From the NCBI RefSeq assembly GCF_003334255.1, contig NZ_QOWU01000017.1: a stretch of DNA of 64,000 bases; one strand, 5' to 3'. Both the position numbers and the translations under genes were made by a program. The notes under the pieces are model-generated. The model did not search any database, was not told the origin of the DNA, and saw only the letters and a program-made list of their open reading frames with translations. This document shows positions 39,140 to 46,513 of this stretch, piece by piece (positions within the stretch are counted from its first letter, which is position 1; each line of letters starts with the position of its first letter). The stretch comes from Escherichia coli (GTDB lineage Bacteria; Pseudomonadota; Gammaproteobacteria; Enterobacterales; Enterobacteriaceae).

Positions 39140-40447
39140 TTATTTGCTACTGTCCGGGCCGCGTTCACCGGTTGCTACCGGATTTTTTGGATCGCTGCTC
39201 CATTCGTACCAGCCGCCGTCATACACGGAAACATTCTTCCAACCCATGGCGCGTGCGTACATAAAGGTTTCGGACGCGCGCCAGCCGGTGCCGCAGTAGA
39301 ATGAAACTTGCTGCTCTGGTTTGATATTCCACGCTTTCCACATAGCGGTAATATCATCGGCGCTGCGCATGGTGCCATCCGGGTTATGAAAATCTTCCAT
39401 ATGCGTCGAGTCGCTACCAGCGTGTCCCCAACGTGCGCCGGCTATTTCACCTTTTGGTTTAATATAGCTGTAACCGCTGGTCGTACCGATAAATTCTGGC
39501 CACGAACGAATGCTCACCAGCGATGCATCCTGGCGATGCAGCAGTCCACGGGCCTGTTCCATATCGAGCATCAACTGCGGTTGTGCCGGGATCTTCACGC
39601 CGAAATCCGGTTCCGCTTTCACTTTCGGTGGCGTTCCGCGCTCAACAGGCAGTCCCGCGTCGGACCAGGTTTGCCAGCCGCCATCCAGCAGGCGCACATC
39701 TTTCACGCCAGCATAAAGCATAATCTGCGCCACACGCGCTGCAGCGTATACGTCACGCCCATACAGAATGACCGTGGTGTCATGGCGAATGCCGTGTTTT
39801 GCCAGCATCGCTTTTAGTTGTTCATCAGAAACTTTGTTCCACAGCGGTTCACTTTCCACTTCGTTGGTATCGATGTAGTCAGCGCCGGGAATATGGCTGA
39901 TAAGGTAAAGCTTAGGAGCGCCCCAGGCCGCTTCAATGACTTTCCAGTCACCGGCAGGTTTCGCCGTAACCTCTTTACCTTGTTGCAGGTCGTGCAGCCA
40001 TTGCGGATAAACCAGCTGCTCAAAATGCGGCAGTTTTTGCAGACGGGAAGGTTCGCTTAGCGCGTCACTCAGGATGGAGATATGCGTTAAACCTGCTTTT
40101 TGCAGTCGCGTTTTGACGGCGTCGACATCTTTGTCATTACCGTACAGCGCCACCGGAGCATCGGTTTTCAGGTTATGTTGCTTGATCCACGCGTTGAGCT
40201 GTTCGGTGCTCATTTTGTCAAGCCAGCTGGCAGAGAGGTTTAAGGCGGCAGGTTCATGACCAGAAGGGCCATTTAAGGTTTGTGGCCAGCCGTTATAAAA
40301 CGCGCTGGGGCGAGTATCTATCGCTTTGCCATTTTGTTGTTGAAGCTGGTCAAGTGTAAGAGGCTTCGCCAGTTCAGCGGCCCACGAAGAAGCGCAAGCC
40401 AGCCCTAAAGCCATTGCCAGCGCGGTCATTTGAGAAACACGTTTCAT
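39140..40447 (-). CDS. ynjE: periplasmic multi-rhodanese-domain sulfurtransferase (435 aa from MKRVSQ)
   Basis: ORF track; signal peptide and rhodanese-type active-site Cys context (CGTGWR). Confidence 0.85.
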   Translation of the reverse strand: MKRVSQMTALAMALGLACASSWAAELAKPLTLDQLQQQNGKAIDTRPSAFYNGWPQTLNGPSGHEPAALNLSASWLDKMSTEQLNAWIKQHNLKTDAPVALYGNDKDVDAVKTRLQKAGLTHISILSDALSEPSRLQKLPHFEQLVYPQWLHDLQQGKEVTAKPAGDWKVIEAAWGAPKLYLISHIPGADYIDTNEVESEPLWNKVSDEQLKAMLAKHGIRHDTTVILYGRDVYAAARVAQIMLYAGVKDVRLLDGGWQTWSDAGLPVERGTPPKVKAEPDFGVKIPAQPQLMLDMEQARGLLHRQDASLVSIRSWPEFIGTTSGYSYIKPKGEIAGARWGHAGSDSTHMEDFHNPDGTMRSADDITAMWKAWNIKPEQQVSFYCGTGWRASETFMYARAMGWKNVSVYDGGWYEWSSDPKNPVATGERGPDSSK

Positions 40448-40513
40448 CGAAAATCCCGACATTGTAGTTTTGAGTGCGCCATTCTGAACTGACGCATTGA
40501 GAAAAACTTTGCG

Positions 40514-41167
40514 TTATCGCAGTTTGTTGTAATTTTCTGACCACTGCGCCATATCCAGAACAGAACTATCAGCAGGAACATCCTGGAGATCGTGCGTTAC
40601 CTGAACGACGGGGATCGCCAGGGCGCGAACTTCGCTGAACACCCACTGGCGAAAATTATCGCGCAGAGCCACATCAAGACGGCTGAATGGCTCATCCAGG
40701 AGTAACGCTTTTGGTTGGGCGAGAAGGGCGCGTAGTAGAGCAACGCGCGCTCGCTGACCGCCAGACAAAGTGGCAGGATCCTGATGGAAAGCTCCCTCAA
40801 GGCCTGAACGCTCAAGTGCATCATTCACGGCATTACGTCGGGCATTCCCTTTAAGTGTCGCCGGTAGCGCCAGCAGTAAATTTTGCCCGACACTGAACTG
40901 GTCAAATAACAGTGCATCCTGAAAAAGAATGCCAATCTGACGCTGTGCGGTGGGTAGGATGTCAATCCGTTGCTCATTGAGCCATAGCTCACCTGTACAA
41001 GAAAACTGTTCGGCCAGTGCACCAATCATCCATGAAAACAGAGTGGATTTTCCACAGCCAGACGGCCCCATTAACGTGACAATGTCACCTTTATCCACCG
41101 TAAAGTTAACGTTTGTCAGCAAGCGGCTTTCTGGTAAACGTAGCGAAACATTTTTCACGCAGAGCAT
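40514..41167 (-). CDS. ynjD: ABC transporter ATP-binding protein (217 aa from MLCVKN; ORF track extends to 41254)
   Basis: Walker A GPSGCGKST and signature LSGGQRAR. Confidence 0.85.
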   Translation of the reverse strand: MLCVKNVSLRLPESRLLTNVNFTVDKGDIVTLMGPSGCGKSTLFSWMIGALAEQFSCTGELWLNEQRIDILPTAQRQIGILFQDALLFDQFSVGQNLLLALPATLKGNARRNAVNDALERSGLEGAFHQDPATLSGGQRARVALLRALLAQPKALLLDEPFSRLDVALRDNFRQWVFSEVRALAIPVVQVTHDLQDVPADSSVLDMAQWSENYNKLR

Positions 41168-45120: not shown

Positions 45121-45798
45121 TTATTCGGCGATTTTAAAGGTAACCGTTGCCAGCGTGTTATCCGCCGGGAGAACTGAGGCATTGCCTTTGAATTTAACTT
45201 CACCACGTTTTTCAACCGCACCATAAGTGTATGTTGCATTGCTGACGATGCCGACCGGGCAGCTATCCAGACACACCAGGCAACCCGTTTTCTTCTCTTC
45301 TGCTGCCGTTAAATTACCGCCAAAGCGCATGTCCAGTTTCTTGCCATTACTGTCAACAATCACTTCATCGAAGGAATACGCTTTTGCCGCCCCTTGCCAG
45401 TTGACCGAAATATCCAGTTTGCTGCCTGTGACATGAGTCGTTTCTTTATTATCCATCGTCATGTTTTCGCCCGGCGTACCACCTGCCTCTTTCAGGGCTT
45501 CATAAAATGCTTTCGGGGTCGCATAACCCATAAACAGCGATTTATGTCCGTTGGAGCCATCTTTAAACACAATACCGTGACGAGTGTCGTCGGTGAGGAA
45601 ACGACCATTAATTTGCACCAGCATGGTTACCGTATGGTTATTGGCATCGACACGCAGCGGTTGGCTGTTCGAAAGTCCGTCGTATTCCACTTTTGCCGCC
45701 GCATTCTCTTGTTGATCGCAGCCGCTAAGCCCAGCAACAGCCAGTAAACAGAGTGCAGCCAGTCCTTTTTTCCATGACACTGAATAATGTTGCAACAT
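45121..45798 (-). CDS. ydjY: putative lipoprotein YdjY (225 aa from MLQHYS; ORF track extends to 45960)
   Basis: lipobox LSGC after a signal peptide; start adjusted to recalled length. Confidence 0.75.
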   Translation of the reverse strand: MLQHYSVSWKKGLAALCLLAVAGLSGCDQQENAAAKVEYDGLSNSQPLRVDANNHTVTMLVQINGRFLTDDTRHGIVFKDGSNGHKSLFMGYATPKAFYEALKEAGGTPGENMTMDNKETTHVTGSKLDISVNWQGAAKAYSFDEVIVDSNGKKLDMRFGGNLTAAEEKKTGCLVCLDSCPVGIVSNATYTYGAVEKRGEVKFKGNASVLPADNTLATVTFKIAE

Positions 45799-45802
45799 CG
45801 TT

Positions 45803-46513
45803 CTATCCTTCATTTTTTGGGTGAGTAAGTGGGCTGCGGCGCGAAGCAGACAGATCCACATGTTTGTGTCGGGCGTAGAGTTTTGCGAGCTGGACGAGAA
45901 TAAACAGCGCCAGGCCCGCCAGACAGAGTTGTAAAATAAAGCGCAGCGTAATGCCTTCATTGGCGAGATCGCTTGCCATCACGGTATAAATAACAATACC
46001 GGGTAGGGTCGTGAGTGCCGAAATAAGGGTATAAGGCCAGAAGGCGATTGTGGTTAATCCGTAAGCGTAATTTTGAATATTGTAAGGAAACAACGGGATT
46101 AAGCGGGTCAGAATAAGAAAATCAATACCGTTACGCGCAATGCCTTTTTCAATGGCCTGGAAGGTATTGCTATGGCCAACGTATTTCAGCAGTAAATCAC
46201 GTCCCAGCCAGCGCGCCAGCAGGAATGAGCACGAGGAGGCCAGCGTGGCGGCAATTAATGAGAGTAGTGTCCCTAAGAGCGGGCCAAAAACTATTCCTCC
46301 CGCGATCACCAGTATGCTTCCTGGTAACAGCAAGAGGGTGGCAATGATGAATAACAGAATATAGAGGCTATAGCCGAAAAATCCGCTCTGGCGGATGAGT
46401 GTCTGTAAGTGGGGTAAATCGGTGAGCAGATCGAATAAACCGAAAGCGTGGATAGCGTAAATGACCAGCGCAAAAATAAGACAGGCAAAAAGAAATTTAC
46501 GCTCAGCGTTCAT
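45803..46513 (-). CDS. ydjX: DedA/TVP38-family inner-membrane protein (236 aa from MNAERKF)
   Basis: ORF track; start adjusted to recalled length. Confidence 0.8.
   Translation of the reverse strand: MNAERKFLFACLIFALVIYAIHAFGLFDLLTDLPHLQTLIRQSGFFGYSLYILLFIIATLLLLPGSILVIAGGIVFGPLLGTLLSLIAATLASSCSFLLARWLGRDLLLKYVGHSNTFQAIEKGIARNGIDFLILTRLIPLFPYNIQNYAYGLTTIAFWPYTLISALTTLPGIVIYTVMASDLANEGITLRFILQLCLAGLALFILVQLAKLYARHKHVDLSASRRSPLTHPKNEG

Follow-up and report, generated by a model that had tools for sequence, protein, structure and literature searches.

A conserved, FNR-activated envelope gene cluster of Escherichia coli, ydjXYZ-ynjABCDE with its neighbour ynjF, as a candidate module for anaerobic chalcogen acquisition

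What do ydjX, ydjY, ydjZ, ynjA, ynjB, ynjC, ynjD and ynjE, eight adjacent minus-strand genes of Escherichia coli, do together? They lie in a 64,000-nucleotide stretch of contig NZ_QOWU01000017.1 (hereafter the window; coordinates are given in the table below), and a preliminary description based on the sequence had presented them as an uncharacterised membrane, transport and sulfur module. Taking the gene limits from the RefSeq annotation and from an independent translation, we found exact agreement with the eight genes, their limits and their tiny or negative spacers (4, 14, -1, 9, -28, -1 and 66 bp in gene order from ydjX to ynjE). Sequence matches also agreed with the components as described, namely two DedA paralogs, a lipoprotein, an AhpD-like protein, an ATP-binding cassette (ABC) importer with a fused permease and a rhodanese, and the view that they form a real functional module without an established substrate or physiological role was borne out. 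Positions 39000 to 46600 are chromosomal E. coli DNA, 100% identical to NZ_CP025842.1 and matched in 5425 of 5426 complete E. coli genomes (query coverage of at least 80% in 5313); the window is part of the E. coli core chromosome. Our answer is a tentative one, to which we give somewhat less than an even chance: together with the convergent gene ynjF, the eight genes would constitute a module of the cell envelope, induced by FNR, for capturing a reactive chalcogen and handing it on, selenium being likelier than sulfane sulfur.

This answer draws on a comparison of loci in other bacteria. One genome per species was scanned, which gave 80 YdjY loci in 44 genus-level groups, and neighbours were identified by tblastn with the eight E. 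coli proteins, all-against-all clustering of open reading frames (ORFs) and confirmation of families with NCBIfam. These loci occur in Escherichia, Citrobacter, many Clostridia and Tissierellia, Gemella, Facklamia and Catonella, and also in Campylobacter, Sulfurospirillum, a spirochaete and many Deltaproteobacteria-type lineages. In most loci outside the enterobacteria, a YdjZ homologue (53 to 61% identical) adjoins ydjY, and a further DedA protein, of the YdjX type, is often alongside; this latter type recurs in Firmicutes loci. The DedA cluster was present in 62 of the 80 loci, that is, in 29 of the 44 groups. For most of the remaining groups, which are of the Deltaproteobacteria type, the cluster of the FeS/CCG 'diclust_near_Sec' protein spans the VTT (DedA) region (according to Pfam in Desulfarculus and to tblastn in several others), and the VTT domain appears to be fused to this disulfide-reductase-like protein. 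YdjY plus a YdjZ-type DedA protein thus make up the core common to the 44 groups of anaerobes and facultative anaerobes, a core newly recognised here. The other components are found less often: a YnjB-type binding protein or importer in 9 of the 44 groups (one example being 35% identical over its full length), a three-domain YnjE-type rhodanese in 6, with an exported single-domain rhodanese in 4 further groups, a YnjF-type transferase in 5 and the FeS/CCG protein in 17. In a Peptostreptococcaceae genome, a full-length YnjE orthologue (32% identical) lies directly upstream of YdjY-DedA.

Selenium is brought in by other neighbours. SelD and YedF were each found in 4 groups, which makes 6 distinct groups altogether; the chance estimate for these occurrences is P of about 1e-3 to 6e-6, for groups that are not fully independent. 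In one locus (L025), SelD directly adjoins YdjY. SelD, YedF, ArsS, TIGR04282 and TIGR04283 all scored above their NCBIfam cut-offs. ArsS, a radical SAM (seleno)protein, occurred in 8 groups, TIGR04283 in 7 and TIGR04282, in stand-alone and kinase-fused forms, in 9 distinct ones. These last three families make up the arsenosugar cassette, and all three lie in YdjY/DedA neighbourhoods of several phyla, whereas none of them is present in the annotated E. coli region (17.6 kb). The adjacency of SelD and YedF suggests that the element handled by this cassette may not be arsenic. An MprF-type flippase-like protein was a neighbour in 5 groups and a nucleoside hydrolase in 3; CcdA, accompanied by a ResA-like thioredoxin, and a C-GCAxxG-C-C (seleno)protein were seen as well.

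The regulation of the E. coli genes points in the same direction and is largely published. The cluster, its operon structure, its regulation and the guess of a molybdenum or selenium role are already known, and in this respect the locus was less unexplored than it had seemed. Chromatin immunoprecipitation (ChIP) and RNA sequencing (RNA-seq) define ydjXYZ-ynjABCD as one operon directly activated by FNR from a site at -60.5; ynjE forms a unit of its own, FNR-activated as well, with a site at -41.5 (Myers et al., PMC3688515). The eight genes are thus two units in these data and not a single operon, with both units belonging to the same co-expression set and no terminator-like hairpin being found in the 66-bp ynjD-ynjE gap, which holds a sigma-70-like promoter match. 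An FNR-like box lies 110 to 123 bp upstream of the ydjX ATG; with 51 boxes of this kind in the window where 37.5 are expected, a mild enrichment, it proves nothing by itself. No convincing FNR box could be placed upstream of ynjE, either by eye or at two or fewer mismatches, and no riboswitch or cis-acting RNA was detected in this region of the window at E values up to 1 or in seven Firmicutes loci at the gathering score. In addition, ynjABCD is mildly induced on BaeR overproduction (PMC2731931), and a genetic-interaction map places ynjABCDEFI together with sufCDS (PMC3930520).

An independent component analysis of E. coli transcriptomes yielded an anaerobic set made of 'ynjXYZABCD' (sic), yedEF, yjiLM and ynjE, for which its authors propose a role in molybdenum or selenium usage (PMC7888660). 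We found the counterpart of this set in a 20-kb locus of Syntrophus (L079). It encodes two double-cubane reductases resembling YjiM, with 456 and 435 bits against a cut-off of 350, and a YjiL-like activase, together with an exported rhodanese, FeS/CCG-VTT, YdjY, ArsS, TIGR04282, TIGR04283, YedF and a cysteine-desulfurase/selenocysteine-lyase-like protein. On the same model E. coli YjiM scores 531 bits, and it is 40% identical to one of the two Syntrophus copies. The locus therefore holds homologues of all four co-expressed E. coli operons, YedF being the only member of yedEF identified. Co-expression in E. coli and co-location in Syntrophus are two independent kinds of evidence for one functional network. 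The link with yedEF, a predicted selenium transport/redox pair, is also seen in four Deltaproteobacteria-type groups, where YedF neighbours YdjY. Like YedE/YedF, and like YeeE/YeeD (thiosulfate uptake), the module combines a membrane component with a sulfurtransferase-like partner; YedE, however, is a Sulf_transp protein, whereas the E. coli module uses unrelated DedA proteins and an ABC importer. The selenium role of YedE/YedF is itself a prediction only.

YdjY scored 146.2 bits against the YdjY domain family (NF040466/PF27149; cut-off, 50), and PF27149 is carried by all listed homologues. In an alignment of 20 sequences across phyla, 45 to 76% identical to the E. coli protein, Arg73, His74, Cys173, Cys176 and Cys180 were invariant. 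The lipobox LSGC has its cysteine at position 27 and is followed by an aspartate at +2, a combination for which the established sorting rule of E. coli predicts that YdjY remains in the inner membrane. No close solved fold was found for YdjY, and the fold has more than 600 relatives in AFDB50. Two of the AFDB proteins with a YdjY-fold region, A0A942RMC6 ('Rhodanese-like domain-containing protein', 328 amino acids) and A0A934E6M3 ('Sulfurtransferase', 495 amino acids), are probably YdjY-rhodanese fusions, and if they are true fusions, they tie YdjY functionally to YnjE-like enzymes. The UniProt-style label of a 4Fe-4S ferredoxin was rejected: YdjY has three cysteines in the pattern CxxCxxxCP instead of CxxCxxCxxxCP, matches to the Pfam Fer4 families were insignificant (E 0.09 to 0.25), the lipoprotein signal is of the Sec type without a twin-arginine motif, and the fold is not ferredoxin-like. 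Separately, we noted two tandem YdjY genes in a Deltaproteobacteria metagenome-assembled genome (L048:9110-10555), the upstream copy being 34% identical to E. coli YdjY.

YdjX and YdjZ were assigned to the COG0398 branch of the VTT/DedA proteins (RefSeq annotation; NCBIfam UptA/DedA matches, E 3e-6 to 5e-9). They are paralogs, a ydjZ query matching the ydjX gene at about 27% identity; YdjX has four strongly hydrophobic segments and a weak UptA match (E 3e-6), and Pfam VTT_dom is recorded on the Kluyvera DedA orthologues and on a Desulfarculus homologue. They share the VTT/DedA domain with UptA-type undecaprenyl-phosphate flippases and with the TMEM41B/VMP1 scramblases, but differ from both in belonging to the COG0398 subfamily and in the conservation, across phyla, of the YdjZ type beside YdjY. 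An identity with UptA was rejected (27 to 36 bits against an equivalog cut-off of 250). COG0398 proteins are without the undecaprenyl-phosphate flippase residues and frequently occur as fusions with disulfide oxidoreductases (bioRxiv 10.1101/2023.01.04.522824). Outside the enterobacteria, ydjY is followed in nearly all loci by a gene for a small protein with several transmembrane segments (61 sequences; for example L013:10694-11260, L084:9559-9951 and L015:12745-13179), which has no NCBIfam match and in many Firmicutes is joined to the N-terminus of the YdjZ-type DedA protein. A hidden Markov model built from the 61 sequences found no counterpart among the six-frame ORFs of E. coli at positions 38000 to 47000. 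Between ydjY and the DedA gene of Catonella morbi we also observed a match to the 'Clostridiales-1' small RNA (L034:10571-10678; 49.5 bits, gathering score 48).

YnjE, a rhodanese recognised by its six-residue CX4R loop, matched its own crystal structures (3ipo and 2wlr); it has a cleavable signal peptide, and the crystallised constructs begin at residues 20 to 23. Published work locates it in the periplasm and describes it as acting poorly on thiosulfate or 3-mercaptopyruvate. After its own entries, the closest relatives with solved structures are 6ktv and 6h98 (E 1e-88), labelled only 'Sulfurtransferase', which we take to be EanB, the anaerobic ergothioneine synthase of Chlorobium limicola, and the alignment with them keeps the SGY(N/S)Y and FYCGTGWR motifs. 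Under this assumption, and with a numbering offset that we likewise assume, Tyr326, Cys385 and Arg390 of YnjE would correspond to Tyr353, Cys412 and Arg417 of EanB, and the two proteins would have the three-domain rhodanese architecture and a catalytic Tyr/Cys/Arg triad in common. Those three residues are the catalytic ones of EanB (PMC10903977), and Beliaeva and Seebeck, citing the YnjE structure paper, suggested that heterocycles may be the sulfur acceptors of EanB-like enzymes without a known function (PMC9516567).

A module devoted to sulfur alone is the first alternative, which we regard as unlikely. Like EanB, YnjE would then draw on polysulfide or sulfane sulfur, capturing it in the periplasm or thiolating a heterocycle there, and the product or the sulfur would be imported by YnjBCD and the DedA proteins and reduced by YnjA for anaerobic iron-sulfur (Fe-S), molybdenum cofactor (Moco) or thiol metabolism. 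The relatedness to 6ktv and 6h98 with its shared motifs and catalytic residues, the heterocycle suggestion and the grouping of ynjABCDEFI with sufCDS are all in agreement with this, as are the rhodaneses, the TusA-like YedF and the cysteine desulfurase among the neighbours. SelD, on the other hand, has no role in sulfur metabolism, and its adjacency is the most specific signal that we found. Moreover, according to the literature YnjE has no apparent thiosulfate:glutathione sulfurtransferase activity and gave a small, statistically unclear rise of cellular sulfane sulfur from thiosulfate. The comparison with EanB also has its limits, since YnjE is exported whereas EanB is cytoplasmic, and no histidine-betaine methyltransferase (the hercynine-forming EanA/EgtD partner) is annotated in the 17.6-kb E. 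coli region, to which this search was confined. The 'sulfur' of the preliminary description stands as one option, with the neighbourhoods in other phyla favouring selenium at least as strongly.

The eight-gene membership proposed initially needs to be extended, because it left out ynjF. This gene converges on ynjE with 8 bp between the stop codons (39129-39142), so that the two transcripts must overlap, and the pair is indeed among the overlapping gene pairs detected by RNA-seq (PMC12288877). YnjF carries an intact CDP-alcohol motif (DG-x2-AR-x8-G-x3-D-x3-D, at residue 68) and five hydrophobic segments. Its best family match is archaetidylinositol-phosphate-synthase-like and below cut-off, as is every named synthase family. 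In four non-enterobacterial Bacillota-type groups, homologues of ynjF lie inside clusters of the YdjY/DedA/YnjB type; full-length comparison with one of them gave 28% identity (E 9e-19). In Firmicutes operons the gene stands between those of a redox protein and a binding protein. We thus propose ynjF as the ninth member of the module.

An enterobacterial variant was found in Kluyvera ascorbata (L093, 6659-16517), where the order is xthA, two abutting DedA genes, ynjB, ynjC, ynjD and ynjE, and where the operon contains neither ydjY nor ynjA. A ynjA homologue (51% identical, with the CxxC motif kept) instead lies on the other strand, co-oriented with ynjF and overlapping its start, an arrangement that links the CxxC protein to the lipid transferase. 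Kluyvera YnjF is 84% identical to that of E. coli and has Pfam CDP-OH_P_transf recorded on it. Because Kluyvera keeps the module without ydjY, YdjY is dispensable in this variant.

With ynjF included, three of the nine genes belong to families that handle lipids, namely those of the two COG0398 DedA proteins and of the CDP-alcohol phosphatidyltransferase with its intact motif, and this brings up a second alternative, which we consider rather improbable. YnjBCD would import an alcohol, YnjF would couple it to CDP-diacylglycerol, YdjX and YdjZ would flip the resulting lipid outward, and YdjY and YnjE would act on it on the outer side; in other phyla, the 'arsenosugar' cassette would make the head group, and the product would be a sugar phospholipid bearing a metalloid or a chalcogen. 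The position of YnjF between redox and binding protein in Firmicutes and beside the ynjA homologue in Kluyvera would fit such a pathway, and so would the MprF-type flippase-like protein, ArsS, TIGR04283, TIGR04282 and the nucleoside hydrolase among the neighbours. It is weakened by the absence of ArsS, TIGR04282 and TIGR04283 from the annotated E. coli region and by the scores of YnjF below the cut-off of every named synthase family, and we know of no unusual anaerobic phospholipid in E. coli. Furthermore, a lipid model alone does not explain the adjacency of SelD and YedF.

YnjBCD was recognised as a Type I binding-protein-dependent ABC importer. For YnjB, a signal peptide and a Pfam SBP_bac_8 match were identified, and the score against NF008633 is 560 bits. 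The comparison of its structure proposed in the preliminary description was carried out on the AlphaFold2 model (predicted local distance difference test score, 95), and Foldseek matched it to PhnS-like STM0429, PotD, FutA/FbpA, AfuA and TbpA at template modelling (TM) scores of 0.6 to 0.65 and 12 to 17% identity. The comparison places YnjB among the binding proteins of the broad PhnS/PotD/FbpA/AfuA/TbpA class, and the match list is so flat that no ligand can be assigned from it. No sequence homologue of YnjB was found in the PDB. Its family has 1524 representative relatives, and the family alignment shows no tyrosine or histidine among the invariant and near-invariant columns. FbpA-type proteins bind iron through Tyr and His, and iron binding of this type is therefore disfavoured for YnjB. 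YnjC has 12 hydrophobic segments, with NCBIfam permease matches of the CysT-like type at residues 20 to 261 and of the ModB/PhnU2-like type at 360 to 499; its Firmicutes equivalent consists of two separate permease genes. YnjD carries a Walker A motif (GPSGCGKS at 34) and LSGG at 134, and its best NCBIfam matches, the PhnT2, sulfate and ThiQ ATPases, are all far under their cut-offs. The thiamine transporter ThiBPQ was rejected as an identity, the ThiQ models giving 130 bits against cut-offs of 298 and 245 and TbpA (2qry) matching YnjB no better than PotD, FbpA or PhnS (TM score 0.62, 14 to 16% identity).

YnjB thus shares its fold class (cluster-D) with the binding proteins of PhnSTUV (2-aminoethylphosphonate), PotABCD (polyamines), ThiBPQ and FbpABC (iron), and the best NCBIfam matches of YnjC and YnjD, PhnU2 and PhnT2, add to the likeness with PhnSTUV. 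The system differs from all four in the low identity and TM scores of YnjB, in equivalog scores far below cut-off, in the fused E. coli permease and in the DedA, YdjY and CMD genes that its operon adds. A selenium-responsive 'PgtC/PhnU' ABC transporter of Methanococcus, whose deletion had no clear selenium phenotype, is a possible relative of YnjBC and a lead only (PMC11097638). As observations in their own right, we mention a 574-amino-acid cluster of E. coli-like proteins (P0122, 10 members) with CMD and binding-protein domains, in which YnjA and YnjB are read across their 9-bp spacer and which is probably a frameshift or stop-loss variant, and a 665-amino-acid call (L086:8001-9998, P0251) with an N-terminal family-2 glycosyltransferase and a YnjB-like domain, either a true fusion or merged genes.

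These results bear on a third alternative, a loose assemblage in which YnjBCD would be an importer of some ordinary nutrient, similar to those for thiamine, polyamines, phosphonates or iron, and functionally unrelated neighbours would merely share an FNR promoter. The nearest folds of YnjB (PhnS, PotD, FbpA and TbpA) are those of such importers, one source (JGI) labels two YnjB homologues 'putative thiamine transport system substrate-binding protein', and outside YdjY loci the family stands alone beside housekeeping genes (in the five loci that we inspected, only stand-alone transporters or uninformative neighbours were seen). We nevertheless hold this alternative to be quite improbable. YdjY, the DedA pair, YnjF, a YnjB-type transporter and a rhodanese recur together in several unrelated Firmicutes lineages at 28 to 40% identity, which is hard to explain without functional coupling; the equivalog scores for ThiQ, PotA and PhnT all fall far short of the cut-offs, and the conserved columns of YnjB lack the iron-binding residues of the FbpA type. 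Finally, that YnjE is a cytoplasmic molybdopterin-synthase sulfurtransferase in an operon supporting Moco biosynthesis, as its repeated annotation under that name and the published proposal of molybdenum/selenium usage might suggest, is highly improbable, because the signal peptide of YnjE is cleavable and the protein is regarded as periplasmic, Moco synthesis is cytoplasmic, and no Moco gene is among the conserved neighbours in other phyla.

How would an FNR-induced chalcogen module work? The element would be acquired during anaerobic growth, when selenocysteine-containing formate dehydrogenases and molybdoenzymes are made. FNR turns on both transcription units, a step established in the literature. 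In the periplasm, YnjE (through Cys385) and YdjY (through Cys173, Cys176, Cys180 and His74) would hold a persulfide or perselenide, as family chemistry, the invariant residues and the rhodanese- or sulfurtransferase-annotated proteins with a YdjY-fold region suggest. YdjX and YdjZ would provide the membrane step, moving either the chalcogen species itself or a lipid-linked carrier built by YnjF. YnjA would then free the chalcogen reductively in the cytoplasm; it belongs to the AhpD/CMD family (PDB matches to the CMD family, E 3e-9, and to AhpD, 7e-6; Pfam CMD is recorded on the Kluyvera homologue) and has the CxxC motif C76-EF-C79. Elsewhere, the FeS/CCG disulfide-reductase-like protein, often DedA-fused, would take its place. 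YnjBCD, lastly, would bring in either a small organic co-substrate or the element itself in organic form. Of all this, regulation and gene associations are matters of observation, and every chemical step is one that we infer.

Several points weigh against such a chalcogen module. Selenoproteins are abundant in Clostridia and Deltaproteobacteria, and some neighbours of '(seleno)protein' families may be background; the Deltaproteobacteria groups, in addition, are not phylogenetically independent. A rhodanese, a YedF/TusA-like protein and a cysteine desulfurase suit sulfur just as well as selenium. The DedA proteins of COG0398 are regarded as lipid scramblases and not as solute carriers. The mature YnjB is without cysteine and its family consists mostly of stand-alone transporters in aerobes, and the cargo of YnjB may be unrelated to chalcogens. 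YdjY is absent from the Kluyvera operon, and the best NCBIfam match of YnjA, the YciW-related (seleno)protein family NF053654, had to be rejected as its identity (101 bits against a cut-off of 310).

A more specific version of the chalcogen module, which we consider a long shot, is a lipid-linked shuttle, through which anaerobic bacteria would have the specific system for acquiring selenium that is still missing. YnjBCD would import a head group, which in other phyla the ArsS/TIGR04282/TIGR04283 cassette would supply, and YnjF would turn it into a carrier phospholipid. The YdjX/YdjZ pair would flip the carrier, periplasmic YnjE and the three-cysteine lipoprotein YdjY would load it with Se(0) or Se(-II), and YnjA, elsewhere the DedA-fused FeS/CCG reductase, would unload it in the cytoplasm for SelD.

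All components come from known families, the fold of YdjY being the exception. The module as a whole resembles binding-protein import plus a rhodanese relay, and the combination of YdjY, paired COG0398 DedA proteins, an EanB-like periplasmic rhodanese, a CxxC protein, a CDP-alcohol transferase and an ABC importer has no characterised precedent. According to reviews from 2022 and 2026, a specific high-affinity selenium transporter is not known in prokaryotes, a gap that extends to the supply of trace selenium to the anaerobic formate dehydrogenases of E. coli. The cluster is a candidate for such a selenium (or sulfane-sulfur) acquisition system. Since it is FNR-induced and co-expressed with yedEF, and since its counterparts are linked to SelD, YedF and a selenocysteine-lyase-like enzyme, the question of selenium uptake becomes testable in E. 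coli. Whatever the element, a first function would be gained for the COG0398 DedA branch, the closest bacterial relative of human TMEM41B/VMP1, as well as for the YdjY fold and for an EanB-like periplasmic rhodanese.

Table. Positions of the module genes and associated sites in the window
Feature	Position	Strand	Description
ydjX	45803-46513	minus	DedA/VTT (TVP38/TMEM64, COG0398) inner-membrane protein, 236 aa
ydjY	45121-45798	minus	Exported lipoprotein, signature component, 225 aa
ydjZ	44399-45106	minus	DedA/VTT (COG0398) inner-membrane protein, 235 aa; conserved YdjY partner
ynjA	43851-44399	minus	CMD/AhpD-like protein, C74-x-C76-x-x-C79, 182 aa
ynjB	42675-43841	minus	Periplasmic substrate-binding protein, 388 aa
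ynjC	41167-42702	minus	Fused double ABC permease, 511 aa, 12 predicted transmembrane segments
ynjD	40514-41167	minus	ABC ATPase, 217 aa, without C-terminal regulatory domain
ynjE	39140-40447	minus	Periplasmic three-domain rhodanese, 435 aa, loop C385-GTGW-R390, Tyr326
ynjF	38511-39131	plus	CDP-alcohol phosphatidyltransferase family membrane protein, 206 aa; proposed ninth member
FNR-consensus-like box TTGAGAAAAATCAA	46623-46636	minus	Upstream of ydjX; 1 mismatch to TTGAT-N4-ATCAA
Promoter-like site	40461-40488	minus	TTCAGA-16-TACAAT, 9/12 matches, in the 66-bp ynjD-ynjE spacer

The 28-bp overlap of ynjB and ynjC hinges on the annotated ynjC ATG at 42702. The ORF offers an alternative start, a TTG at 42726, and a start at the internal Met16 would abolish the overlap.

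Two minor observations were made in passing. A PrdB-like ORF ends after about 155 residues at '...LLSPG', at a point where the PrdB family continues, in one Facklamia locus (L077:4879-5346), in four other Facklamia loci and in Bacillus benzoevorans; the apparent truncation may reflect an in-frame UGA selenocysteine codon. Close to the module, the 3' ends of ynjH (plus strand, 37779-38051) and nudG (minus strand, 38017-38424) overlap by 35 bp (38017-38051), and this pair is among the listed transcriptional-overlap pairs (PMC12288877).

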